From: a virus
DNA length: 12,895 nt
Strand: one strand, 5' to 3'
UHGV virus genome: UHGV-0182645
Shown piece by piece: positions 1 to 12,895 of the stretch. The notes beneath the pieces were generated by a model that had not been told where the DNA came from, searched no databases, and saw only the letters and a list, made by a program, of their open reading frames with translations. Every line of letters starts with the position of its first letter. The stretch's first letter is position 1. The position numbers and the translations under genes were made by a program.

Positions 1-69
1 ATCGGCAATGCCGAAACCATCGAACTTGAAGAACGGATTGAGTACCACTATAAAATTCAAGTTGAATGA
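1..69 (+). CDS. 3' end of an ORF entering from upstream of the window (C-terminus ...IGNAETIELEERIEYHYKIQVE); product unknown
   Basis: Frame 1 is open from the window edge to TGA at 67-69. Supported only by the open frame and by operon-like packing with the two small ORFs that follow. Confidence 0.25.
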   Translation: MGNAETIELEERIEYHYKIQVE

Positions 70-100
70 TAGCAAGAGATAAGCAAGGAGTCACTACACT

Positions 101-190
101 ATGAACAGCTACTGTCTTTTCCCATCACTCGTTGTCCGCCACTCACGCGATAATCTGCATTCTTTACTCGCGCTGGGGGTGTCAAAATGA
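101..190 (+). CDS. small ORF, 29 aa (MNSYCLFPSLVVRHSRDNLHSLLALGVSK); possible leader or coupled peptide
   Basis: AAGGAG at 85-90 lies 10 nt before ATG 101. Its stop TGA 188-190 overlaps the ATG of the next ORF (ATGA). Below the ORF-track size cutoff; read by hand. Confidence 0.2.
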   Translation: MNSYCLFPSLVVRHSRDNLHSLLALGVSK

Positions 191-354
191 CCGTTCGCTA
201 CCTCAACTTTCAAATCCAGAACATCACTGGCGGTTGCTATGACTGGTTTGTCACTCTCGGAAAAGAAGTGATCACCGGGAAGCTGGATGAAGTGAAAGCT
301 AAAGCAATGGCCTACGCCTGCAAGCAAGCCAGGAAGAAATCCGCCAAAGCATAA
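187..354 (+). CDS. small basic-tailed protein, 55 aa (MTVRYLNFQIQNITGGCYDWFVTLGKEVITGKLDEVKAKAMAYACKQARKKSAKA); function unknown
   Basis: ATG 187 overlaps the upstream stop (ATGA), with a G-rich stretch (CTGGGGG) just upstream. Structured 3' region and an intrinsic terminator follow on the same strand. The antisense track ORF 109-327 has no such signals. Confidence 0.35.
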   Translation: MTVRYLNFQIQNITGGCYDWFVTLGKEVITGKLDEVKAKAMAYACKQARKKSAKA

Positions 355-459
355 AATACTGACTGTTGCGCCCTGACATTATCGTGGGGTATATTTCTAC
401 GGCACCTTAGAAAAACGGGTGCCGGGATTGGTCTCCCGGTAATGTCAAAGGCGACACAT

Positions 460-482
460 AGACGCCACAAGCGTCTTTTTTG
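460..482 (+). terminator. putative rho-independent terminator (stem AGACGC / GCGTCT, loop CACAA, then TTTTTTG)
   Basis: Hairpin followed directly by a T-run on the plus strand, downstream of the small-ORF cluster. Confidence 0.45.
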
Positions 483-645
483 TTGTCGGCGCACTCGCAC
501 ACCTATCAATGGTGGGCTGTGTGGTGGCTTCTTCGGAAGCGCCGGTTCCCTTTGACGCCGGTAAGACCAACTCCACACAGTCCACCGCCAGTAAGATTGG
601 TCTCTTCGGCGGTGGTATCGTTCACTGTCAAAGGAGGCTGCCAAT

Positions 646-861
646 ATGGCTACTATCCCTACCCCAACTCATTCTGAATTTATCTGGCGTTTCTATTCCT
701 GCCAAAAACACCTGTATATCTGCGTCATGGCTGCAACCGAAGCAGAAGCTCGTTCATACCTTCCTGAAGAACCCTGCATTTTTGCCGCACGCTTCACTCT
801 TGATGCGATGGAGATCCTCAATTACTGGAATCTGCCAATGAACTGCGTGGAGGTGCACTGA
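646..861 (+). CDS. hypothetical small protein, 71 aa, translationally coupled to the Rha-family gene
   Basis: AGGAGG at 632-637 lies 8 nt before ATG 646. Stop TGA 859-861 overlaps the ATG of the next gene by 1 nt. Confidence 0.5.
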   Translation: MATIPTPTHSEFIWRFYSCQKHLYICVMAATEAEARSYLPEEPCIFAARFTLDAMEILNYWNLPMNCVEVH

Positions 862-1802
862 TGAATCTGTCCATCTCTCAAAAAGCGACAATGACCAGTA
901 TTGAGATCGCGGAACTGGTAGGTAAGCGTCATGATAATGTGAAGCGTACCATTGAAGTATTAACTAAAGGTGGTGTCATTCAATTTCCTCAAATTGAGGA
1001 AATTGAAAATAAACAATCAGTTGGCCCTCGTCGATTTTCCAAGGCTTACATCTTTGAAGGCGAACAAGGAAAACGAGACAGCATTATTGTCGTCGCGCAG
1101 CTCTCTCCCGAATTCACCGCCCGGCTGGTGGACCGCTGGCGCGAACTGGAGAGTGCCAAAGTACAGTTAAAATCAAAAGCCGAAATTCTGGCTGAAATGG
1201 CGCAAATGCATCTTGAGCATGAACGCCGGATCAACGCCGTTAATGCCCAGGTAGCCGAAGTATCGGCACAAGTGTCCAAAGTCGCTGAAACCGTCGAGCA
1301 AATAAAGAAAGGCAATATGCCGGAAGGCTACATTGGCTACCGCCAGTTGGCGGCGAAATGTGGCCTGACTGAAGCCAAATGTCGCAACCTGGTTAACGCT
1401 TACCGGATTCCCACCGATACACATGAGTTTTTGACCCCCGATGGCTTGCTTGCGCGACGCTCCATTGTGGCTCTGGCCCCCTTCCGGAAAGCCTTCAAGC
1501 AGGTTATGTCGGAGGCAGAACCACGCAACAAACGCTGGTATCATCCCAAGATGGGGCTGTTTCAGGCAATCCATCATCCTTTACCGGAAATCCCAAAAGA
1601 TAATCTGTCACTGCATACCGCCAGAGAGAAGATCAGAAGTGGATATGCAACGGTATGCCGTCGCGCCTCATGGTCTGAAGGTGTATGGGTATGGCCCGAA
1701 GGCGGATCAAGGAAGCACTGGCGCACTATCCGGGATGGGAAAATCCATGCTATTGATTTAGCGCCAGAGGATATGGTTGCTATGGACTGGATTGTTAGTT
1801 AA
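861..1802 (+). CDS. phage regulatory protein, Rha family (antirepressor-like), 313 aa
   Basis: GGAGG at 849-853 lies 7 nt before ATG 861. The N-terminal segment TMTSIEIAELVGKRHDNVKRTIEVL matches the conserved Rha-domain signature (IAE..GK.H.NV.R.I) as I recall it; not search-verified. Confidence 0.7.
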   Translation: MNLSISQKATMTSIEIAELVGKRHDNVKRTIEVLTKGGVIQFPQIEEIENKQSVGPRRFSKAYIFEGEQGKRDSIIVVAQLSPEFTARLVDRWRELESAKVQLKSKAEILAEMAQMHLEHERRINAVNAQVAEVSAQVSKVAETVEQIKKGNMPEGYIGYRQLAAKCGLTEAKCRNLVNAYRIPTDTHEFLTPDGLLARRSIVALAPFRKAFKQVMSEAEPRNKRWYHPKMGLFQAIHHPLPEIPKDNLSLHTAREKIRSGYATVCRRASWSEGVWVWPEGGSRKHWRTIRDGKIHAIDLAPEDMVAMDWIVS

Positions 1803-1810
1803 TTACTGTT

Positions 1811-1838
1811 GCCCCGGCCAGGTCGGGGCTTTAATTTA
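1811..1838 (+). terminator. putative intrinsic terminator between convergent genes (stem GCCCCG / CGGGGC, then TTTAATTTA)
   Basis: GC-rich hairpin 9 nt after the Rha stop, followed by a T-rich tract on the plus strand. Sits between the convergent stops at 1802 and 1839. Confidence 0.4.
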
Positions 1839-2714
1839 CTAGTCCTGCTGACAATTCAGGAACATAAACGCACGTTTGTCCGTTAAATCCGTAACATAAT
1901 ATTCACGAATACCATTCGGTTTTATGCGGCGAGCATACACAAACTTATGAACTGGCTGGTCGCTGCCATAACTAACCTCAGTGCGAAATTCATCGACCGT
2001 GCTACCATCCTTTTCTGTCTCTTTGCGTATCAGCTTATTGTTCAGAACTGGTTGAGTCTCATCCATTCCGCTAAATGCATCTTGCCCGGTACTATTACCC
2101 CGGTTGCCACGTGGTAAATCCCACGAGAAATAAGTCCCATAGTCTGTAATTACCTGATCCCACGCCCCGGCTTCATCCATATAATGACTACGCTTCCCTT
2201 GGTATGTTACGTCAACCTTACAGGAAAACGTTGGCGCGCTATTACTTGCAGCAGAGGCCGTTGAAGATTGTGTAACACTGCCATTGTTGGCATTTCCATA
2301 GTTCCAGCCATCATGCAACGCTTTAACCCACAGATTAGTCAGGGATAGCGTAACATCATTCCCCAGCGCCTGGCTGATTCGAAGCCTCTGTATCCGACGC
2401 AACCCATACTCATAGGCTTCATCGTCATTAATCACTCGCCCACGTTGAGCGGCTACCACCCCAGATTGCCACGCACGATTAATTTCACGAATAAGATACA
2501 CTTGTGGATCAACTCCGTATCTGTTGTATTCATAGTAAAGGCTCATTGCGCCATGTTGGCTCTGGTATTCATTAGCCCATGATATAACCGCGTTTCTTCC
2601 ATAATCCGCGAGCGCAGAATGACTTGACAGAAGAAGAGCAACGCCAACAGTCTTCAGTAATTTGAATCGGAATAACTTTTTAATAATACGATTGGGAAAT
2701 ATGTTTTTGCTCAC
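1839..2714 (-). CDS. secreted or periplasmic protein of unknown function, 291 aa, with predicted N-terminal signal peptide; moron-like accessory gene
   Basis: 876-nt ORF starting at GTG with GAAAGG about 9 nt upstream. N-terminus has a basic n-region (KNIFPNRIIKKLFRFKLLK), a hydrophobic core (TVGVALLLSS) and an AxA-type cleavage motif (SALA/DYG). AT-rich upstream region at 2715-2830. No family recognised. Confidence 0.6.
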   Translation of the reverse strand: MSKNIFPNRIIKKLFRFKLLKTVGVALLLSSHSALADYGRNAVISWANEYQSQHGAMSLYYEYNRYGVDPQVYLIREINRAWQSGVVAAQRGRVINDDEAYEYGLRRIQRLRISQALGNDVTLSLTNLWVKALHDGWNYGNANNGSVTQSSTASAASNSAPTFSCKVDVTYQGKRSHYMDEAGAWDQVITDYGTYFSWDLPRGNRGNSTGQDAFSGMDETQPVLNNKLIRKETEKDGSTVDEFRTEVSYGSDQPVHKFVYARRIKPNGIREYYVTDLTDKRAFMFLNCQQD

Positions 2715-2943
2715 TTTTCAACCTTTCACCACAAATCAAGACTAACAACCCAATAATAATAACTAACCACTCTGTTTTTTTGATAAGCACCAAATCGTTT
2801 ACAAAAAAAATAGCAAATGACTATTGACACTATTCTGGAAATCACAAACTGCACATAATCCATCGCGCTAACGGCTCCCGTTGAAGGTTCTTTTGACGAT
2901 TAACTTTCAGCCGAAGCGCGGTAGGGAGTCATAACGCCAAAGC

Positions 2944-2968
2944 AGGCCGCCATGTGCGGCCTTTTTTT
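2944..2968 (+). terminator. strong rho-independent terminator (stem AGGCCGC / GCGGCCT, loop CATGT, then T7)
   Basis: Perfect GC-rich hairpin followed by TTTTTTT on the plus strand. No plus-strand protein gene lies upstream of it; see findings. Confidence 0.6.
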
Positions 2969-2995
2969 GTATCCGTCATCCGTGGAGGAAGGACA

Positions 2996-3649
2996 ATGGA
3001 AAAGATCGCAATATTCAGCCTGACCACCAGCAAGCCTCAAATGCTCACTGCAATACTGAAAGACGGTGCTCTCATTATTAACGAAGTAAAACCCCTTCCC
3101 GCGTCAGCATTGGAGCAAAAGCAAAAAATTCCTCCAGCTATAGCAGCCCTGCGGAAAAGCAAATTTAAGGTACTGGTAGACGAAATTACGCCAACGATCT
3201 CCGCTGGCACCGGAGCAAGTCAGGTGACTCTCAAGACCCGTCATGCCGATGGTAGAGCAGCAATCATCGTCGGGATGGAAAGATACAGAGAGTTAAAACT
3301 CCAGAAACTATTATCCCTGCCGCAAAATAACAAAGGTGCTTTCGAAATCCCCGACTCTATCGTTGATACCGAATACAATGGTAACGGAGAAGAAGTCTAC
3401 CGGGTGAACTGGCAGGACATCAGGCCGGAACATATTCTTATGATCCTGTGTTGCTACGCGACCGTATACCACAACGTTGCCAGTGCGGATTACGTAGAGC
3501 AGATGACCGGCGCAGTCGAGAAAGAGCAAAAAACAGGCATACTCGCTTCGTTCCTGTCCATTATTGGGCATGAAAAAGTTGAAGCAGGCACCTCCCAGCC
3601 AAAGTCACTGGCTGGGAAAGAAGTTGATGAAGATACCGTGATACTTTGA
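2996..3649 (+). CDS. hypothetical protein, 217 aa
   Basis: GGAGGA at 2984-2989 lies 6 nt before ATG 2996. The track ORF begins at 2954, but that ATG sits in the loop of the terminator hairpin, so I prefer 2996. No family recognised. Confidence 0.65.
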   Translation: MEKIAIFSLTTSKPQMLTAILKDGALIINEVKPLPASALEQKQKIPPAIAALRKSKFKVLVDEITPTISAGTGASQVTLKTRHADGRAAIIVGMERYRELKLQKLLSLPQNNKGAFEIPDSIVDTEYNGNGEEVYRVNWQDIRPEHILMILCCYATVYHNVASADYVEQMTGAVEKEQKTGILASFLSIIGHEKVEAGTSQPKSLAGKEVDEDTVIL

Positions 3650-4307: not shown

Positions 4308-5493
4308 TTTCCTGAAAAACCAGGACGGGCGCTATATCACTGACGGCCTGTCCTCTAAGGACTTCACGCGTTTATTCGACCTTATCAGGAAAGAACAAAC
4401 CCGTAAGCGCCGACAAGCTCACCGGACGCTGACGCCAGGTAGACTGAGGAACAAATCCGCCGAAGATATTCTCAAGTTAGGGAAGAAAAAAGGCGGCACG
4501 TTCTTCACGCGAGACGACCTGAAAGGTTTCGAAAAGCTACGGAGTAAAACACGCGAAAAATATGACAGCAAGACGGCTGGCATCACATACGCCCAGCTGG
4601 TGGCATCCAGCCAGGCAATCGATATTAAGCGTGCAAATAACGCCGTGGATGACGGATCTGGTATCAAAAGAGCTACACCCGTATCTCTTCGCCACAACGT
4701 GATTAATATCCGCGTAGAAGCATCGGATATATCCGTCCACCAGCACCATATCGTCCGGATACGCTTTGAAGAATGGGATCAGATGGTCGATGACATCGCA
4801 GAAGACGATAAATCAGCTCTGAAAATCACTAAATCACTGTGCGCTGGGCGGGTGTCTTTCGATTGTGACTGTGGTCGTCATCAATACTGGTATCGTTACA
4901 TCGCTACTGCGGGTAACTTTGCCCTGGCCCCGCCAAAAGAATACGCCTATCCAAAAGTTCGTAACCCTAAGCTACAAGGCGTCGCCTGTAAACACGTGAT
5001 CCACTCAATGACGCGGTTACAGTCCGCTAGTTGGCAAATGAGTATTGCTCGTGCGTTACAAAAGGCCGCAACGCAAATTGCATTTGGTGACGATCGCCGC
5101 CGTACAACCAAACACTTCTCAAAAGAAGACGAGAGGGAGTTTAATCGCAATCGCAACAGTAAAACAAACGTTGACGCTGCCAAGCGCGAATGGAGGCTCT
5201 ATCAGAAGCGCCAGGCAGCTTTAAGTACAAAACTGGCAAAGGACAACGGCAAGATCGACAAGCTACGTGACCAATTGACCAGGGCCAGAAAGTTGTCAGA
5301 CGCACAGAAAAAACGGGCGGCTGCAAAAGAAGCGGCCTTGCAACGTGAGAAACAGAAAAACAAGGAGCTTCAGCAACGCCTTGCCGATCAGTTCGCACTG
5401 AAGAAGCAAGCGTTCATTGATGCGCTTGTCATGGCTGGAACGCCACAAGAACAGGCTGAGAAGATGTTTATAGAGTACGTGAAAAAAGCATAA
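4300..5493 (+). CDS. 397-aa protein with a CxC...CxH (SWIM-like) putative zinc-binding motif and a highly charged C-terminal coiled-coil-like tail; function unknown
   Basis: ATG 4300 overlaps the upstream stop (ATGCCTGA). Motif FDCDCGRHQYW...GVACKHVIH. The last ~100 aa are K/R/E/Q/A-rich with heptad-like periodicity. Confidence 0.7.
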   Translation: MPDFLKNQDGRYITDGLSSKDFTRLFDLIRKEQTRKRRQAHRTLTPGRLRNKSAEDILKLGKKKGGTFFTRDDLKGFEKLRSKTREKYDSKTAGITYAQLVASSQAIDIKRANNAVDDGSGIKRATPVSLRHNVINIRVEASDISVHQHHIVRIRFEEWDQMVDDIAEDDKSALKITKSLCAGRVSFDCDCGRHQYWYRYIATAGNFALAPPKEYAYPKVRNPKLQGVACKHVIHSMTRLQSASWQMSIARALQKAATQIAFGDDRRRTTKHFSKEDEREFNRNRNSKTNVDAAKREWRLYQKRQAALSTKLAKDNGKIDKLRDQLTRARKLSDAQKKRAAAKEAALQREKQKNKELQQRLADQFALKKQAFIDALVMAGTPQEQAEKMFIEYVKKA

Positions 5494-5526
5494 ACCACAC
5501 ATAGCCTAGTAGTTTATGCTGGGCTT

Positions 5527-6255
5527 TCATTTTTTTGAAAGATCAATTCCAGTATTATCAAACAAACTGGAAATATCAGACACCAATTTATTAAAATGCT
5601 TGTCATCATTATAGAATGATGTGCTTTTTATAGCGACTATAAAATCACATAAATCTTGCGGAGATTCAATGCTAACCCCCTTATTTTTATATAGCTCAAT
5701 AATACTGCCAACATCAGTATGCAATAGTTTTATCGCGCCACAAATTTCTCGCTGTTTCGCAACTAGGTCATTAAGTTTATTTTCATTTTCATCTAAGATT
5801 TGTTTTGAATATTTAGCGTCATTGGTTGCTTGATTTAACTTTGTTTTCTTTCTTTGCAATTCTATTCTTTTATCATAATCAGCAACTTCATCTAAATATC
5901 TTATTTCAGTGTATAATTTACTTGTTAGCTTAGATATCTTCAGTGTGAGAATAGGAGCTAACACAGATGCAAATACTCCATAAACAAATGGGATTACAAC
6001 GTGATAAACCCACGGGGATACAATCCAATTATCAAAGAACGGGACATTGCCACCAACAAAAACAATAGATAATGTATATAGGATGTCGTCCTTTGACTTT
6101 AATATAATTAAAATATCCTTCCAGTTAAAAATTAGAAAAGAAATGACAACATATGCAAAAACCTTGTTAAATATTTTATCTTTTATTATTTCAGAAAATG
6201 ATTTTAGTTCTGTTTCATTTATAGACGGATTATCTGTAACTTTTTCTGACATCAT
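5527..6255 (-). CDS. AT-rich membrane protein, 242 aa: two predicted TM segments, a coiled-coil segment and a C-terminal domain; candidate exclusion or abortive-infection effector
   Basis: AGGAT lies 6 nt before ATG 6255. Hydrophobic segments VFAYVVISFLIFNWKDILIIL and VVIPFVYGVFASVLAPILTL, then a charged heptad-like stretch (RIELQRKKTKLNQATNDAKYSKQILDENENKLNDLVAKQ). Hand-counted G+C in sampled 60-nt stretches is about 23-32%, against about 50% in flanking genes. Confidence 0.65.
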   Translation of the reverse strand: MMSEKVTDNPSINETELKSFSEIIKDKIFNKVFAYVVISFLIFNWKDILIILKSKDDILYTLSIVFVGGNVPFFDNWIVSPWVYHVVIPFVYGVFASVLAPILTLKISKLTSKLYTEIRYLDEVADYDKRIELQRKKTKLNQATNDAKYSKQILDENENKLNDLVAKQREICGAIKLLHTDVGSIIELYKNKGVSIESPQDLCDFIVAIKSTSFYNDDKHFNKLVSDISSLFDNTGIDLSKK

Positions 6256-6276
6256 AGCTTATCCTGATTACTTTTA

Positions 6277-6477
6277 TTATGGATAGTTAAAAGATTCAAC
6301 AGGTGATGGTGGCTGAATTGGGTAATGTTTCTTCTCGTACTCCTCAATGAGAAGACTCATAACCTCAAAGAAATCACCTTCCGGAGTATTCATTTCCGGT
6401 TCGTTATCGAACATCGGTTCGACCGCACGCAGTGCGGCCTCATAATCTTGTTCTGTACGGATAGGTTTAATGTTCAT
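6277..6477 (-). CDS. orphan 66-aa ORF resembling only the N-terminal (non-HTH) part of a longer HigA-type antitoxin; possible gene remnant or small partner of the adjacent membrane protein
   Basis: Sequence MNIKPIRTEQDYEAALRAVEPMFDNEPEMNTPEGDFFEVMSLLIEEYEKKHYPIQPP fits the N-terminal consensus I recall for that antitoxin family (..EYE.AL..I..L.D....PEGD..E.L..LIE.YE..HYPI). The ORF stops where the HTH would start. No clear SD; it starts 12 nt after a terminator hairpin. Confidence 0.4.
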   Translation of the reverse strand: MNIKPIRTEQDYEAALRAVEPMFDNEPEMNTPEGDFFEVMSLLIEEYEKKHYPIQPPSPVESFNYP

Positions 6478-6489
6478 TAATTACAAAGG

Positions 6490-6516
6490 AAAGCCCACTT
6501 GCTAAGTGGGCTTTTT
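6490..6516. terminator. bidirectional-capable intrinsic terminator (10-bp stem AAAGCCCACT / AGTGGGCTTT, loop TGCTA)
   Basis: Perfect 10-bp stem. Followed on the plus strand by TTGTATGTGTTTT and on the minus strand by CCUUUGU. Sits 18 nt past the higA stop. Confidence 0.5.
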
Positions 6517-6533
6517 GTATGTGTTTTACTATA

Positions 6534-6872
6534 TCAGGCTGCTTTTTTATTCAGGTTCCGCTGAGAAATAAATTTTTCAGCAGTATTGATACGACTTAAC
6601 TCTTCCTGAACGCGCATATCATTTTCGACTTCCCACAGATCTACTGCGGTCTGAAGATTAATCCAAAAATCTACAGAAGTATCGAATGCTTTTGCCAGGC
6701 GATATGCCATATCCATCGTTAGCTTACGATTATTATTAACAAGAGCACTTACGGTGTTACGATGAACATGAAGTATTTCTGCTAACTCGTTGATCTTCAG
6801 CTCTAACGGCTCCAGGTATTCGTACAGAAGGATATCACCTACGGTCGTCGGTTTTCTGGTTGCCTGTTTCAT
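6534..6872 (-). CDS. higA: HigA-type antitoxin, XRE-family HTH, 112 aa
   Basis: AAGGG lies about 7 nt before ATG 6872. The protein shows the HigA pattern (PGDIL..EYLEPL...INELAEIL.V....VS.L.N....LT.DMA.RL...F..S..FW.NLQ) and lies immediately downstream of the HigB-like toxin gene. Confidence 0.85.
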   Translation of the reverse strand: MKQATRKPTTVGDILLYEYLEPLELKINELAEILHVHRNTVSALVNNNRKLTMDMAYRLAKAFDTSVDFWINLQTAVDLWEVENDMRVQEELSRINTAEKFISQRNLNKKAA

Positions 6873-6942
6873 TTTTTGCCCTTACTAGCGTGCGTATTAA
6901 GTGGACTCTGGTCAGAACCCGGACCGTAACCGGGAATCTGTT

Positions 6943-7245
6943 TTAGTATTTGTGAGGGTCGAGATACAAGTCCTCGGCCTTTCCGTTAACCCACTTAAAA
7001 ATTAACCTATATTGCTTATTCACCCTTACTGATGAATAGCCATTTAGCTTCCCTGACAGTTCCTCATACCGATTACCTGGTGGTGATCTTAAATCCTTAC
7101 AGGTAGTTGCGGCATTGATAATGTCCAACTTCCGTGACAATGTCATATGAATATCAGGAGGTATCTTTCTATGTGGTGTTGAAAATTCAAAAAAATCATC
7201 AAGCCACGCATCCCTGAAATCCTTTATGTTAATTTTTTTGGTCAT
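6943..7245 (-). CDS. higB: HigB-type toxin (RelE/ParE superfamily, killer-protein family), 100 aa
   Basis: C-terminal signature YEELSGKLNGYSSVRVNKQYRLIFKWVNGKAEDLYLDPHKY matches the HigB killer-protein motif (W/YR..F.F.NGDA..L.Y.DYH) from memory. Toxin-first order with the HTH antitoxin downstream. Confidence 0.85.
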   Translation of the reverse strand: MTKKINIKDFRDAWLDDFFEFSTPHRKIPPDIHMTLSRKLDIINAATTCKDLRSPPGNRYEELSGKLNGYSSVRVNKQYRLIFKWVNGKAEDLYLDPHKY

Positions 7246-7284: not shown

Positions 7285-7318
7285 ACTATAGCGCACTGTT
7301 GCACTGTGCGCAAGTGCA
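7285..7318 (-). promoter_or_regulatory. putative higBA promoter with overlapping operator-like repeats (-10 TATAGT; GCACTGT x2 plus inverted GTGCA)
   Basis: On the minus strand, TATAGT (plus coords 7285-7290) sits about 40 nt upstream of the higB ATG. Immediately upstream is GCACTGT-T-GCACTGT-GCGCAA-GTGCA (7293-7318), a typical arrangement for autoregulated TA operators. The -35 is weak (TTGCGC). Confidence 0.35.
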
Positions 7319-7407
7319 TTTTATGGATTCCCCCTCCTTCATCCAAAATCACAATCTCCCGAAAATCTTCCTTTCGATACCTGACAGATCGACCTTTGAG
7401 GATGCTT

Positions 7408-8199
7408 ATGGGCCGTTTTGACGAATGGTTTGCTGACGATGCAAACCTGGCAAGTAAGGAGTCAGAACATGACAGCACGCAGAGAGAAACGCCAGCGCCG
7501 ATTGAAGCGAATGCAGGAGGTGCGCCGGAACATGGCAATACCGGTTCGGATTCATTCAGCATTCTGGAAGAGCAACCCGCCGCCAAAGCTGATAGCCATG
7601 ATAATTTTGCTGATAGCAACGCTGGCCTTACTCCGGATGCTGCCGAATCAGATATAGCCATACTTCCACCTTCCCTGGCTGGCAGAGAACCAACTCCACA
7701 GCTAAAAGCACGCTATAACGGGCATAAAGCCTTTAATGACCAAATCCGCGCAGACTGGATGCTGATTATTGAATCCAGCCCAGACGCGTTTCAGGCTCTC
7801 TTATATCGACCAGATGTTGGCACATATGGGGTAGTCAGCGACGAAACAGGAGAAGAGTCATTCACTGAACTGGATAACAACCAACGCGAACTGACTTACC
7901 AGGAACCTGAAATCGTTTATGTGCTGGATAACCCTGACGGGCGTGACTCTTTCCATGCGATTGACGCAGACGGTGAGCAGGATGGCTTAACCGATGATGT
8001 TCTGATTCTGCGTATTGCAGCAAATAACGTCCCCGTCGGCTCAATTCTTGAATGGAATGAAGAGATGGTAAACGGCGTAGCCCGCCGCTGGTGGTACGTG
8101 CACCGTATTTTTAGCTACGGCACACAGCATGTTGGTTCGCTTTACTACTGCATACCTGCCAGGAATTTTGATACGACTCAAAACGGAGTGATCGAATGA
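7408..8199 (+). CDS. hypothetical protein, 263 aa, with an acidic low-complexity N-terminal half; first gene of a four-gene coupled operon
   Basis: GAGG at 7398-7401 lies 6 nt before ATG 7408. The track ORF starts at GTG 7306, but that would run through the divergent higBA promoter. Stop overlaps the next start (ATGA). Confidence 0.65.
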   Translation: MGRFDEWFADDANLASKESEHDSTQRETPAPIEANAGGAPEHGNTGSDSFSILEEQPAAKADSHDNFADSNAGLTPDAAESDIAILPPSLAGREPTPQLKARYNGHKAFNDQIRADWMLIIESSPDAFQALLYRPDVGTYGVVSDETGEESFTELDNNQRELTYQEPEIVYVLDNPDGRDSFHAIDADGEQDGLTDDVLILRIAANNVPVGSILEWNEEMVNGVARRWWYVHRIFSYGTQHVGSLYYCIPARNFDTTQNGVIE

Positions 8200-8963
8200 C
8201 TTCAAATAAAACCCTCCTGGCGCGAACAGGTGAATGGCAAACCTCACGCACAGGAAAATTCCAGACCACGGGCTTTGAAAACGTGGATAACGCGTTTGCG
8301 ACGCTAATCAGCAACATTTTTTCTGATATCTTACTTGTGGCCCCCGCGCCGGAAGAAAAACGCTTTGCGTCATTCCTGAATCGTCCACCAGCAGAGCGTG
8401 TCTATGTGGCCCGTTTCGACAATGCGATCGAGTTTCTTAAAGCAGTACGTCGCGCAAATGCCGGGCAAGGGAGAAAACCTGAAAACCAGAACATTAACCG
8501 GGATGCTCTCCCCCTGGTCAATATCTCACGCACTATGGATATCAATTATATCAACGATGATCAGCAGATTGACCGCAAAAAAGTAGCCAGTTTTTGCGAA
8601 CCGGATACCGGAATGCCTTTAGCAGAACTGGAATACACCCAGGCCATTCTGACGTATGACGTTACGTTAATGGCAACTGATAAAGCGACCATGAGTCTGA
8701 TGTGTAATTCGCTGGGCGCACGGCTTCGCCTGATGACAGGTACACAATTTGAAGCAACCACTCACCTTGTTCGTGTCCCGGTCCCGCTGATTTGCTCGAT
8801 ACAGGATGCCAAAGAAGTCGGCTTTACGGATGTTTCAGCACCAATTGGAGAAGAGCGTATTTATGCCACACAAGCGCCGATAAGTGTGATTGCAGACGTG
8901 ATCACAGCATGGGAGTTGGACGCAAAACGTATTATTACCGAAACCTCGATATCTATGGGGTGA
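8196..8963 (+). CDS. hypothetical protein, 255 aa
   Basis: ATG 8196 overlaps the upstream stop. Continuous coding-like composition. No family recognised. Confidence 0.65.
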   Translation: MTSNKTLLARTGEWQTSRTGKFQTTGFENVDNAFATLISNIFSDILLVAPAPEEKRFASFLNRPPAERVYVARFDNAIEFLKAVRRANAGQGRKPENQNINRDALPLVNISRTMDINYINDDQQIDRKKVASFCEPDTGMPLAELEYTQAILTYDVTLMATDKATMSLMCNSLGARLRLMTGTQFEATTHLVRVPVPLICSIQDAKEVGFTDVSAPIGEERIYATQAPISVIADVITAWELDAKRIITETSISMG

Positions 8964-8966
8964 TAA

Positions 8967-9947
8967 GTGGCCCAGGAGTTACAACAATATTTTCTACAGT
9001 CAGTGCTCATTAACGATAACAAAGTGCCACGAGACTGGATTTTTACCGCAGTATATGTAGAAAAAACCAGCCTCAAAGCCCCTTTGCTAAAACTGGAAAT
9101 TCATGACGCTACCGGCACCGTAATTGATGACTGGAAAGCAAAATACGGTGCATCGCTGGTGGCTGAAATGGGCGATCCAAACGGTAATGCAGGCACTTTT
9201 AAAACAGATTTCTTTGTTACGTCTGCAATGCTGGCTGGTGATGTTGTTACCGTTATTGCTGTCAGTGAAGACGTGCGCAGGTTTAAGATCCCCTCCCCGC
9301 GCACAAATTTACATACCAACAAAACACCAGACGCTATATTCAAGGCATATTCCGGCAAGCTTAAAATTACCAGCAGCGTGCTAAAACGCGCAGTTACATA
9401 TCATCTGAATGCCGGTGACAAACCGTCAAAAATGCTCTCGCAGATAGCGCGAGACAAAGGTGCATTATGTTGGGTATGCCGTGGGGAATTTAACTTTTAC
9501 ACCCTGGCTGATCTGATGAAGCAAACGCCATCATTTACCTACGAGGGGAATAACCCTAAAGCAGAATACACTTTGTCCAAAATGCGCCTACTCCAACAGG
9601 AACATGCGACAACAGCAAAGAATCAATATCGTTTTGTTGGGTATTCCATGACCGATGGCTACGTCGAATATGGCGATAGCTCACTCCCAGTGCGTTATAT
9701 ATCCGACTCTGATATGGAAACTCTTCGCAATATGCAGCTGTCTCTCGTCCCCAAAATGGATATAGAAGTCGCAGGCAATCCGGATATAAAACCGGGAATG
9801 GTAATAGAGATTATCGTATACCGCTATGACCAGGAAAACCGCATTGATGAATCAATGCCCCGCAAGCTGATAGTAAAAAATGTTGCGCACTTTGAAGACC
9901 GCGTAGGCTACACAACACGAATGATATTAGGAGTGCCGAACAAATGA
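8967..9947 (+). CDS. hypothetical protein, 326 aa (GTG start); possibly a structural or baseplate-associated protein by position
   Basis: GTG 8967 with GGGGTGA upstream, 3 nt after the previous stop. Its stop overlaps the next start (ATGA). A functional guess rests only on adjacency to the spike-like gene. Confidence 0.6.
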   Translation: MAQELQQYFLQSVLINDNKVPRDWIFTAVYVEKTSLKAPLLKLEIHDATGTVIDDWKAKYGASLVAEMGDPNGNAGTFKTDFFVTSAMLAGDVVTVIAVSEDVRRFKIPSPRTNLHTNKTPDAIFKAYSGKLKITSSVLKRAVTYHLNAGDKPSKMLSQIARDKGALCWVCRGEFNFYTLADLMKQTPSFTYEGNNPKAEYTLSKMRLLQQEHATTAKNQYRFVGYSMTDGYVEYGDSSLPVRYISDSDMETLRNMQLSLVPKMDIEVAGNPDIKPGMVIEIIVYRYDQENRIDESMPRKLIVKNVAHFEDRVGYTTRMILGVPNK

Positions 9948-10597
9948 AGCGTAGAGCGCAAATTGTTGGAACTGTGCACCCGGCAGGGCTTATGCGTGCT
10001 CAGGTCCGTGTTTTACCAGACTGGAATGGCGTTCCTGATGACGATCTACCCTGGGCAGAATACCTGTTACCCATAGGTAACGCGTTTGTACCTACAGTAA
10101 AAGGCGACCTGGTATGGGTAGAGTTTCCTTATCTGGATGTTAATGGTCGAATTGATACCAGACGCCCAATGATAGTTGGCGCAGCTCAGGATGCGCCTGG
10201 CGGAGTACCAAACGTCGCGCCGGAGGCGTCAGGCAATGGTAGCGGCTGGACGCCACCAGAAGTAGACGGAGCGCCTCCCCGCCCGCAATTTTCGGCGACA
10301 AAAGATTTCGTGATTCACCGCAACAATGTGCTCGAAGTGCGAACGGCTGGCGGTGGATATGAAATAGCGAATACGGCAGCAGGCTCAAGGATTGGAATGA
10401 ATGAATCAGGGCAGATATACATCATTGGTCCGGCTGATGTAGTAGTGAATGCGGGAGGGAGTGTTAACGTCAAATCAGCCGATAACATCAGCGTTAATGG
10501 CAAAAACATTACTGTGACAGCCGACGAAAATATTGATTTCAAGGCTGGAGGCACCTTCCAGGCTATCGCAAGCAACTTTGATTTCAAGAAGGGATAG
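9944..10597 (+). CDS. gp5/gpV-type spike-like protein (N-terminal OB-fold signature, C-terminal repetitive beta-rich segment), 217 aa
   Basis: N-terminus AQIVGTVHPAGLMRAQVRVLPDW...LPWAEYLLPIGNAFVPTVKGDLVWVEFPY...RRPMIVGA lines up by eye with P2 gpV (GIIVETDLNAGRCRVQT..TDWLQWL...PSVGEQVLIL...FVLPGIY). C-terminus is G/N/V-rich (VVVNAGGSVNVKSADNISVNGKNITVTADENIDFKAGG). Not search-verified. Confidence 0.5.
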   Translation: MKRRAQIVGTVHPAGLMRAQVRVLPDWNGVPDDDLPWAEYLLPIGNAFVPTVKGDLVWVEFPYLDVNGRIDTRRPMIVGAAQDAPGGVPNVAPEASGNGSGWTPPEVDGAPPRPQFSATKDFVIHRNNVLEVRTAGGGYEIANTAAGSRIGMNESGQIYIIGPADVVVNAGGSVNVKSADNISVNGKNITVTADENIDFKAGGTFQAIASNFDFKKG

Positions 10598-10606
10598 AAA
10601 ACACAT

Positions 10607-10650
10607 CCAATTGTGTTAGATAATTGAATAGAATTTTCTAACACAATTGG
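10607..10650. repeat. perfect 14-bp inverted repeat (CCAATTGTGTTAGA ... TCTAACACAATTGG) with a 16-bp AT-rich spacer, just upstream of rdgC
   Basis: Exact reverse complements at 10607-10620 and 10637-10650. The right arm overlaps the rdgC ribosome-binding region (GGTGA at 10649-10653). Confidence 0.6.
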
Positions 10651-10656
10651 TGAAAC

Positions 10657-11562
10657 ATGAGATCAGTCGCTTTCAAAAACATCTTCATCTATCGTCTTTC
10701 ACGTGAAGTTAACTGGAGTGCCGCAGAAGTATCCGATGCTCTTAGCAAATTCGTGTTTACTCCTTGCGGTTCTCAGGACACAGCTAAAGTCGGTTGGACA
10801 CCTGTTCTTGGTGACAACCTCACCCATGAATACCAGGGTTTTCTGCTAATACAGCATAAGCGAGAAGAAAAAATTCTCCCCTCGCAGGTGCTCAAGGAAG
10901 AGTTGCAGAAAAAAGTCCTGAAACTCGAAGAAGAGCAAGCCCGCAAGCTGAAGAAAACGGAAAGAGACAGTCTTAAAGATGAAGTCCTGCATTCACTTTT
11001 GCCTCGCGCGTTCACGAGAAAATCACTCGCCAAAATCCTGATCGACCGCAGCAACCATCTGGTATTCGTTGAGGCAAGCAGCGCCAAAAAGGCAGAGGAC
11101 CAGCTGGCTTTATTGCGAAAGTCGCTCGGCAGCCTGCCTGTCATTCCATTCACACCACGCGAACCGCTGGAAATTACAATGACCGAGTGGTTTAAAAGCG
11201 GCTTCCCTGCCGGATTTACAGCAGGTGAAGACGCCACATTAAAGGGTCTGCTCGATAATGGTGGTGCCGTTCGCTGCAACAAAGTTGATCTACAGTCCGA
11301 CGAGATTATGTCTCACATTGAGGCGGGGAAAGTAGCTACGACCGTTGCAATTAACTGGATGGACCGTGCGTCGTTCAGAGTCAACGATGATATGAGTATC
11401 AAAGCCCTGACATTCTGTGATGATCTCTATGACCAGAACGACGATATCGACCGGGAGGATGTAGCACAACGATTTGATGCTGATTTCGTGCTCTTTACGG
11501 GCGAATTATCTGCACTGTTTAACGCGCTGGTGGAGGCCATTGGCGGTGAAGCAGAACGATAA
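10657..11562 (+). CDS. rdgC: recombination-associated protein RdgC homolog, 301 aa
   Basis: Near-colinear by-eye match to E. coli RdgC over the full length, for example [94 protein letters not shown] and GGEA. GGTGA lies 4 nt before the ATG. Confidence 0.9.
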
Positions 11563-11578
11563 TAACCGACCGCTTGTT

Positions 11579-12226
11579 GTGAGTCTTTGTGATTTTACGG
11601 GGGCAATGGTTGCCCCCTGGCTGGAATACGGTGTCGATGCCGCTATCGTCGATCCACAGCACTTATCGACCAGTGACGAGCGGATGCAATCAGGTGCCGT
11701 TCTGACGCGTATTAGTGCGATCATCGATAGCGATGAAGTATACGCTTTTCTCCGTAAGAATTTGCAGCGCATCGTGTTTCTGGCCGGGTTCCCACCGTGT
11801 ACTGACCTGGCTGTTTCCGGCGCGCGCTGGTTTTCGGACAAGGCTAATAAAGATCCGGTTTTCCAGTTCAAAGCAATGCAGGTTGTCTGGCAGTGTTATG
11901 ACATTGCAAAGATGATCGGTTGTCCGTACATGATTGAAAATCCGGTCAGCAAAATATCGACATTCTGGCGTAAGCCAGATCACATCTTTCACCCTTACTT
12001 CTTCACTGCATATTGTCAGGAAGATAACTACACCAAAAAAACATGCCTCTGGAGCGGCCAGGGCTTTGTCATGCCTGATGCCCTAATGGACGAATCATTA
12101 GGCAAGCCAGATAACAGAATCCATGCCGCGCCACCAGGGCCTGACAGGGCTAATTTCCGAAGTGCTACTCCACATGGATTCGCAAAGGCAGTTTTCGAAG
12201 CGAATAAGGGGGTGCTCTATGAGTAA
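11579..12226 (+). CDS. compact C5-cytosine-methyltransferase-like protein (motif I-like, PPC in place of PCQ, ENP in place of ENV, C-terminal motif-X-like), about 215 aa; start uncertain
   Basis: VVSLCDFTGAMVAPWLEYGVDAAIVD resembles motif I of C5-MTases, FLAGFPPCTDLAVSG resembles motif IV (GFPCQ.FS.SG), and YMIENPVS resembles motif VI. There is no room for a normal target-recognition domain. I chose GTG 11579 to retain motif I without overlapping rdgC; ATG 11606 and ATG 11474 are alternatives. Confidence 0.5.
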   Translation: MSLCDFTGAMVAPWLEYGVDAAIVDPQHLSTSDERMQSGAVLTRISAIIDSDEVYAFLRKNLQRIVFLAGFPPCTDLAVSGARWFSDKANKDPVFQFKAMQVVWQCYDIAKMIGCPYMIENPVSKISTFWRKPDHIFHPYFFTAYCQEDNYTKKTCLWSGQGFVMPDALMDESLGKPDNRIHAAPPGPDRANFRSATPHGFAKAVFEANKGVLYE

Positions 12227-12857
12227 ATCTATAGCAAGCATAGCCATAGAAAAACAGGATACGATGGCTGAAATTAGCTATATGCGCACCATTCGGACTC
12301 CGGATGAATATGAGCGTCCGATATTCAAATGGGTAGGTGGTAAATTCTCAGAATTGCCTACAGTGCTTGAGCATCTACCACACGGTAAGCGGTTAATAGA
12401 ACCATTCGTTGGTGGCGGTTCCGTATTTACGAATGCAGGATTTCGCCACAACCTGCTTAATGATATTAACGGTGACCTGATTAACTTCTATCAGACATTG
12501 CAGCGAGAAGGACATTCGCTCGTCACGCTGTCATATAGTTTTTTCAAAAATTACAACAACGCTGACGCTTACCTCGAAGTGCGTGAGGCATTTAACAGAG
12601 GAAAATATGACCAGCTACATCATGCTGCCGCATTTTTGTACCTTAATCGTCACTGTTTTAATGGCGTAACGCGGTACAACCAAAATGGCGAGTTCAACGT
12701 GGGGTATGGCAAATACAAAGCGCCCTACTTCCCACATGCAGAGATGGAGGCATTTTTGGCTGATGACGTACTCAAAAACACTTCCTTTGTATCAGGAGAC
12801 TTTGCTAGCGTCATCGAGGCAGCTGGTGCATCCGACGCCGATTTTGTGTACCGATAA
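12219..12857 (+). pseudogene. Dam-family (D12 class) N6-adenine methyltransferase-like ORF, apparently truncated just before the catalytic DPPY motif
   Basis: Colinear by-eye match to E. coli Dam from FKWVGGK through EPFVGGGSVF, LNDINGDLINFY, FLYLNRHCFNGVTRYNQNGEFNVGYGKYKAPYFPHAEMEAF to ...ASDADFVYR, then TAA at 12855-12857. In Dam the equivalent position reads ...DASVVYCDPPY. AAGGGGG lies 6 nt before ATG 12219; ATG 12264 is an alternative start. None of the three frames after the stop encodes DPPY within the remaining 38 nt. Confidence 0.65.
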
Positions 12858-12895
12858 TGCTGTAATGATTGCCTGCCGCGGTTATTTTATGTATC

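Follow-up and report, generated by a model that had tools for sequence, protein, structure and literature searches.

The locus and its reading frame

The stretch of DNA considered in the current analysis (12,895 nucleotides of the UHGV virus genome UHGV-0182645, hereafter the window) encodes a compact protein of 226 residues that is probably an active, free-standing DNA cytosine-C5 methyltransferase dependent on S-adenosylmethionine (SAM). This prediction, based on sequence and on a model derived from it, places the protein in the compact "phage Dcm-like" family, PHROG 757. The open reading frame (ORF) lies between rdgC and a gene of the Dam family of adenine methyltransferases. An earlier note, made from the letters of this DNA, had described it as a C5-methyltransferase-like protein with non-canonical catalytic motifs and without space for a target-recognition domain (TRD). 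The ORF and all the motifs quoted there (SLCDFTG, GFPPC, ENP and a C-terminal motif) are present in the sequence. Its position between rdgC and the Dam-like gene is likewise confirmed, with an overlap of 8 nucleotides between the end of the ORF (TAA at 12224-12226) and the beginning of the Dam-like ORF (ATG at 12219).

Positions 10600-12828 of the window share 96.5% identity with Escherichia phage D6; with many plasmids of E. coli, Salmonella and Shigella, which are non-mobilizable and measure about 90 kb, the identity is 99-100%. The stretch thus belongs to a D6-like phage-plasmid related to P1, and this is confirmed by the neighbouring genes, which comprise P1-like tail and baseplate genes, rdgC, the ORF under study and the Dam-family gene. 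In D6 the corresponding gene, orf64 (MF356679), is annotated as "putative DNA-cytosine methylase"; its product shows no amino-acid difference from the window protein other than the translation of the GTG start (99.6% in tblastn). It has the same neighbours, rdgC and dam, but Dam of D6 is intact with 301 residues and that of the window breaks at 12829.

The length of about 215 residues given in the earlier note, and the ambiguity described there between GTG 11579 and ATG 11606 as start codons, do not hold. An in-frame GTG at 11546 with a strong Shine-Dalgarno sequence had been overlooked, and on sequence grounds this is the likely start, rather than 11579 or 11606. It overlaps the rdgC stop by 17 nucleotides, and the exact 226-residue protein has been called in 4,961 blocks of public assemblies. 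The arrangement GGAGG-N9-GTG is kept in relatives of 82-93% identity (L010-L018), although this conservation is not independent evidence because GGAGG also codes for rdgC residues. A relative of 64% identity has an ATG start that overlaps the rdgC stop and lies six residues ahead of VVSLCD. All the homologs have at least about five residues ahead of SLCD, and the first β-strand of the structural model spans residues 10-14; a start at GTG 11579 would therefore clip this strand. A start at ATG 11606 would delete the conserved motif I, as the earlier note had observed. With residues counted from GTG 11546, SLCDFTG corresponds to residues 13-19, GFPPC to residues 81-85 and the conserved C-terminal motif RSATPHGFAKAV to residues 205-216 (family pattern RSATPxGFAxAV).

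Assignment to the C5 methyltransferase fold

The AlphaFold2 model of the protein has a mean predicted local distance difference test score (pLDDT) of 83.8 and a predicted template modelling score of 0.84. In Foldseek searches with this model the C5 DNA methyltransferases are the best match, with DNMT3A and DNMT3B at the top. RNA methyltransferases of the FtsJ type score nearly as high, but they match over about 130 residues as against 170-187 residues for the C5 DNA methyltransferases. The catalytic domains of DNMT3A and DNMT3B share 11-13% identity with the compact protein; DNMT3 acts as a tetramer together with regulatory domains, and its TRD loop still has about 50 residues.

An hhalign comparison of 100 family members with nine canonical C5 methyltransferases gave an E-value of 1.2e-5 and a probability of 81% over 120 columns. 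The canonical profile consisted of M.HhaI, five phage enzymes and three P1-type Dmt sequences. Fragments of the M.HhaI sequence used agree with alignments in the PDB, and the sequence retrieves phage C5 methyltransferases. A search with the N-terminus of P1 Dmt retrieved only near-identical P1-like proteins and added no diversity to this profile. The alignment pairs Asp36, Cys85 and the ENP motif with their counterparts in M.HhaI (Table 1), so that the motif I-, IV- and VI-like elements proposed in the earlier note align with those of M.HhaI in the profile comparison as well, and structure prediction agrees in giving C5 DNA methyltransferases as the closest fold. Motif I is conserved in the family at D16 (86%), at T/S18 (98%) and at its glycine.

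Compared with the canonical enzymes, the compact protein has PPC for PCQ, ENP for ENV and Lys for Arg at the motif VIII position. The Val of ENV is replaced by an invariant Pro, and the assignment of Lys164-Lys165 to motif VIII would follow from their position and pattern. The catalytic loop that follows Cys85 is strongly conserved and modelled with low confidence, and this combination fits a mobile catalytic loop. The "motif X-like" C-terminus of the earlier note stands in so far as a conserved C-terminal motif is present; its equivalence to motif X is only one of two readings. The last helix begins with RSATP, a position that points to motif X, and the sole alignment, a non-significant one, pairs RSATP with RxLTPxE of motif IX.

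Structure, profile comparison and conservation agree in placing the protein, by prediction, among the C5 DNA methyltransferases. Of these enzymes it retains the catalytic Rossmann-type domain alone. The TRD or small domain of the canonical members (PF00145; M.HhaI, M.HaeIII) is absent, and the stretch that covers about 138 residues by numbering in M.HhaI (R165-N304) is reduced to 35 residues.

Table 1. Features of the D6-like window around the compact methyltransferase gene
Feature	Position	Strand	Basis or remark
Tail and baseplate genes, homologs of P1 genes 7, 24, 6, 5	7306-10597		Upstream of rdgC
rdgC (homolog of P1 hrdC), preceding the compact gene in one operon-like block	10657..11562	+	PF04381, E 5e-103; syntenic with P1 uhr-hrdC-dmt
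Shine-Dalgarno sequence GGAGG, inside the 3' end of rdgC	11532..11536	+	Read from the sequence; 9-nucleotide spacer to GTG 11546
Predicted compact C5-cytosine DNA methyltransferase, 226 residues	11546..12226	+	D6 and plasmids are annotated with this start and length
Motif I-like LCDFTG, residues 14-19, putative SAM-binding loop after β1	11585..11602	+	hhalign: SLCDFTGAM against M.HhaI DLFAGLGGF
Asp36, acidic residue of motif II where β2 ends, predicted SAM ribose contact	11651..11653	+	Kept in 99 of 100; aligned with M.HhaI E40
Motif IV FPPC; Cys85 (11798-11800) predicted catalytic nucleophile	11789..11800	+	Cys85 invariant; aligned with M.HhaI C81
Putative catalytic loop TDLAVSGARWF, residues 86-96	11801..11833	+	Strongly conserved; pLDDT <50
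Motif VI ENP, E131-N132-P133	11936..11944	+	E131 and P133 invariant, N132 95%; aligned with M.HhaI E119-N120-V121
Lys164-Lys165 in YTKKTCLW, strand β7, putative motif VIII position	12035..12040	+	K164 invariant; YTKKTCLW conserved
Short segment where canonical enzymes hold the TRD, residues 170-204	12053..12157	+	35 residues, flanked by W169 and R205
C-terminal motif RSATP, residues 205-209, followed by the last helix (210-223)	12158..12172	+	R205 95%, S206 90%, T208 94%, P209 98%
Dam-family adenine methyltransferase ORF	12219..12857	+	PF02086, E 3e-39; overlaps the compact gene by 8 nucleotides

Conservation and the missing target-recognition domain

Conservation was assessed in 100 diverse representatives, which share 34-51% identity with the protein of the window. 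C85, E131, P133, P150, K164 and W169 are invariant among them, and D36, F82, P83, N132, R205, T208, P209 and G211 are conserved in at least 90%. The motifs are far beyond chance. Against relatives of the D6 lineage the ratio of non-synonymous to synonymous substitution rates (dN/dS) is 0.05-0.10.

The segment between W169, at the end of strand β7, and R205 has a median length of 35.5 residues in the 100 relatives (range 31-82), and the median length of the whole protein is 230.5 residues. Some of the relatives (P0006, P0007, P0121) carry an insertion of about 28 residues at exactly the site of the TRD, which argues that the slot exists and is normally empty. The earlier note's description of a protein of C5-methyltransferase fold with elements of motifs I, IV and VI and without room for a TRD is thus borne out, and compactness is a property of the family and not a truncation. 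Four explanations had been offered there. The minimal cytosine methyltransferase is supported, since the slot is short throughout the family and dN/dS is low. These two observations and the strict conservation of the catalytic residues lead us to reject the degenerate enzyme. The partner-dependent enzyme is disfavoured, and an enzyme of different chemistry improbable, for reasons given below.

An experimentally studied homolog

Mutants of the KarlJaspers-like phage K42 that escape the retron Ec86 have a disrupted 711-bp gene named "dcm" (bioRxiv 10.1101/2023.08.16.553469). Expression of K42 Dcm from a plasmid, with no other phage gene, triggered the retron and raised the content of 5-methylcytosine (5mC) in its multicopy single-stranded DNA (msDNA) as seen by liquid chromatography-mass spectrometry, and the quadruple mutant C82A/E128A/K175A/K176A was inactive. 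The mutated residues had been chosen by superposing an AlphaFold model on DNMT3A, and K175 and K176 were named as substrate-binding residues (bioRxiv 10.1101/2023.08.16.553469).

In a homolog of 236 residues from the phages tuinn and FritzSarasin, the four positions numbered in K42 Dcm are occupied, without any shift, by Cys, Glu, Lys and Lys; this homolog shares 38% identity with the window protein (tblastn to tuinn, E 2e-32). K42 Dcm therefore belongs to the compact family, and its C82, E128, K175 and K176 are equivalent to C85, E131, K164 and K165 of the window protein. Dcm of K42 and of KarlJaspers-type phages (Drexlerviridae) has the same compact architecture without a TRD, and DNMT3A and DNMT3B are the best structural match for both. 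The two proteins differ in motif I, which is the canonical-looking FDGSG in K42 Dcm and CDFTG in the window protein, and in the β6-β7 hairpin, which is longer in K42 Dcm. Their settings differ too: in K42 the gene is a solitary one in a group of small early genes close to a helicase, and in the window it lies between rdgC and dam.

Proposed function

In the predicted reaction, SAM would be held at the motif I loop LCDFTG with Asp36 touching the ribose, and the target cytosine would be flipped out of the DNA. Cys85 of FPPC would then attack C6 while Glu131 of ENP holds and protonates the base, and the methyl group would be transferred to C5 before release of the enzyme. Since a separate TRD is absent, the contacts with DNA would have to come from the mobile loop after Cys85, the β6-β7 hairpin with Lys164 and the 35-residue segment before RSATP; oligomerisation, as in DNMT3A and DNMT3B, may add to them. 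In the D6-like phage-plasmid the rdgC, methyltransferase and dam genes would be translationally coupled as a block, and the compact gene lies where P1 has the canonical C5 domain of its bifunctional Dmt. The likeliest role would be methylation of phage and plasmid DNA as a shield against restriction. As a side effect such enzymes can set off the Ec86/Eco1 retron defence, which has been shown for the homolog only.

Several observations weigh against this assignment. Searches of Pfam, NCBIfam, PADLOC and the sequences of the PDB gave no relevant match, either for the protein itself or for two profiles of its family. PF00145 is not matched by the window protein at E ≤ 1, and it is touched weakly by only four of the 100 relatives (best E 0.0039). 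Motif I of the window protein is without the canonical FxGxG, of which one Gly is kept (G19, 80%), and the alignment of the C-terminal half with the canonical motifs VIII-X is not significant (E 0.24). Activity within the family is documented only for K42 Dcm. The K42 evidence is a preprint with a targeted assay of 5mC (bioRxiv 10.1101/2023.08.16.553469). Restriction resistance in Drexlerviridae was not clearly linked to methyltransferase content in the BASEL study.

The sequence preference of K42 Dcm also calls for caution. E. coli MG1655 carries the host dcm gene. In this strain without the phage enzyme the retron was silent and 5mC in msDNA was low, and the CCWGG specificity of K42 Dcm was assumed from that of host Dcm and not measured (bioRxiv 10.1101/2023.08.16.553469). 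The assumption sits uneasily with these data because MG1655, being dcm+, does not itself trigger the retron.

The weak matches to ornithine decarboxylase, CENP-W and BH2621 that appeared in the database searches are regarded as due to chance.

Alternative explanations

A protein of the same fold and with the same covalent Cys chemistry could use carboxy-SAM, made by the CmoA of the host, to give 5-carboxymethylcytosine, or could use both cofactors. The model for such an activity is CmoX, reported in 2025 as a phage homolog of C5 methyltransferases that uses carboxy-SAM and has an SPPC motif, an Arg replacing Asn304 of M.HhaI and a neighbouring CmoA; 4,257 CmoA genes were found among 5,615 CmoX contigs, and E. 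coli CmoA served as the positive control for carboxy-SAM synthesis (PMC12783734). The compact family has FPPC and, where the last helix begins, Arg205 (conserved in 95%), and enterobacterial hosts make carboxy-SAM. The motif is nevertheless FPPC and not the SPPC of SpCmoX (F82 in 91 of the 100 members), hhalign to SpCmoX gives a probability of only 19.5%, and Arg205 is only a putative counterpart of N304 of M.HhaI (N304/R350), the non-significant hhalign alignment preferring motif IX. Moreover, an Arg occupies this position in DNMT3A and DNMT3B and a PPC is present in DNMT1, although both kinds of enzyme use SAM. The K42 homolog carries the Arg-Ser motif too, yet it raised 5mC. CmoX (PDB 8yf3) has 372 residues with a TRD and usually an adjoining CmoA and ligase, none of which is found with the compact protein: no homolog of CmoA or CmoY was detected in 80 related loci (within 4 kb), in D6, in the plasmid, in the tuinn loci or in the window, and the same loci gave no homolog of the amide ligase. 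With two short motifs as its positive support, such a different chemistry is very unlikely for this protein. For the family as a whole, the absence of a TRD together with the Pro-Pro-Cys and the Arg before the last helix that are shared with CmoX gives a somewhat better but still low chance that these are either nearly non-specific C5 enzymes requiring little sequence context or carboxy-SAM users that install 5-carboxymethylcytosine. A substrate other than cytosine in double-stranded DNA has also been considered, with the same Rossmann core serving to methylate RNA, single-stranded DNA or a nucleotide. No TRD is present to read a duplex, and the only documented substrate of a homolog is a hairpin of the single-stranded msDNA. 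The shorter match of the RNA methyltransferases, the alignment of the invariant Pro-Cys and of Glu-Asn-Pro with motifs IV and VI of DNA C5 methyltransferases, and the location of the gene where P1 has its C5 DNA methyltransferase domain leave this explanation only a slight chance.

The missing TRD could be compensated by a partner, the compact protein catalysing the reaction and the adjacent Dam or another DNA-binding protein finding the target. The stop/start overlap with dam, the fusion of the C5 domain to Dam in P1 and the metagenomic protein P0121, in which the compact domain is naturally joined to Dam, are in line with such an arrangement, although the latter fusion is seen only in this one distant relative. 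A survey of the 80 closest viral loci, in which Dam was sought within 4 kb, shows it adjacent together with an upstream rdgC only in the 10 D6-like loci and absent from 69; phage tuinn has no neighbouring methyltransferase at its locus. Adjacency to Dam is thus limited to the D6 lineage and represents a functional association, but not an obligatory one. K42 Dcm is, moreover, active in vivo without other phage genes; host proteins including Dam were present in that experiment, which therefore excludes a phage-encoded partner and not every host partner. Dependence on a partner is accordingly given little probability. P1 Dmt itself occupies the same position as the compact gene, directly after hrdC/rdgC, and is likewise joined to a Dam function, but it fuses PF00145 and PF02086 in one polypeptide whereas the window has two overlapping ORFs. 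BLASTP of the compact protein against P1 Dmt shows no similarity, and descent as a cut-down copy of the P1 C5 domain is therefore ruled out. A catalytically dead remnant, kept for binding of SAM or DNA only, would agree with the motif I that departs from FxGxG and with the absence of a match to any curated family model. It is barely credible in view of the invariance of Cys85, Glu131 and Lys164 in 100 divergent relatives, the low dN/dS, the short architecture as the norm of the family, and a homolog that is active and loses its activity in the quadruple mutant that includes the catalytic Cys. The free-standing, SAM-dependent C5 methyltransferase is hence retained as the best explanation for the compact protein.

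Distribution and annotation of the family

The window protein matches PHROG 757, "DNA methyltransferase", over residues 2-213 with an E-value of 3.6e-76. Homologs have been identified in 1,591 of 50,697 phage records (about 3%), including T1-like, Dhillonvirus-like and rV5-like phages, Klebsiella Webervirus and phages of Campylobacter and Flavobacterium. A tblastn search with M.HhaI at a stricter threshold finds canonical enzymes in 1,064 phage records. The family falls into no fewer than 7,924 clusters at 90% identity and 1,592 at 50%, and nearly all the members have 200-260 residues. Among 5,426 complete E. coli genomes 89 carry the compact methyltransferase gene, on plasmids. The gene is therefore an ordinary and very common phage-plasmid gene, and it is already known: it is annotated in D6, its family is PHROG 757 and one member has been studied experimentally. 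The records annotated by the Prokaryotic Genome Annotation Pipeline that were examined, including RefSeq E. coli plasmids, name it "hypothetical protein".

The window itself implies nothing new, and the practical value of these results is one of annotation. With a curated model, a likely anti-restriction gene and trigger of retron Ec86 would receive its name in many genomes of therapeutic phages and phage-plasmids. A modest but real question is how a C5 methyltransferase of about 225 residues without a TRD picks its cytosines; if its specificity is minimal, it would be a small tool comparable to what M.EcoGII is for adenine.

Apart from the fusion with Dam (P0121), the compact domain is also found fused with an HNH endonuclease (P0195). 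It occurs within phage proteins of 1,126 and 1,397 residues (BFVD A0A6J5NPY6 and A0A6J5SE15), one of which is annotated with a helicase/UvrB N-terminal domain. Only the C-terminal part of the compact domain is present in P0262, where it comes after a protein that begins with a Mu Gp48-like domain.

Genomic context

The Dam ORF of the window stops at 12857 ("DFVYR*"), just short of the catalytic DPPY. Homology is lost at 12829, ahead of this motif, and the alignments to D6 and to the plasmid end after 12828; Dam is intact, with 301 residues, in D6 and in every relative examined. The ends of the window (12829-12895 and 1-80) are unmatched in otherwise near-identical D6-like plasmids, and the last 67 nucleotides have no match in the plasmids or elsewhere in the window. 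The break in dam could be a real junction or an artefact of the contig end. The P1 C1 operator consensus has no match within the window, and the sole sigma-70-like site ahead of rdgC scores no better than chance.

A low-GC island is present at 5401-6600 (33-34% as against 42-52% in the remainder of the window). It contains a minus-strand ORF of 242 residues (5527-6255) with a match to phrog_8191, a group of unknown function, but to none of the Pfam families; situated between the tail genes and a HigBA module, it looks like an acquired accessory gene. The module lies on the minus strand at 6534-7245 and consists of a HigB-like toxin (6943-7245; PF05015, E 4e-35) and a helix-turn-helix antitoxin (6534-6872; PF01381). 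This pair is annotated in D6 as a RelE/HigA addiction module.

The ORF at 861-1802 has a Rha-type phage regulatory domain (PF09669, E 4e-9), and Icd-like, Ash-family and "maturation control" proteins are annotated around this region in related plasmids. Only three plasmids match at least 80% of positions 1-3000, so that the window is mosaic at this end.

Directly downstream of dam, D6-like elements have a complete gene for glutaminyl-tRNA synthetase (glnS). Two assemblies, with contigs of 388 kb and 823 kb, have a gene for a phosphotransferase system EIICBA protein next to this glnS on its downstream side, which suggests that the element has integrated at glnS into a larger replicon or has been assembled through one there.

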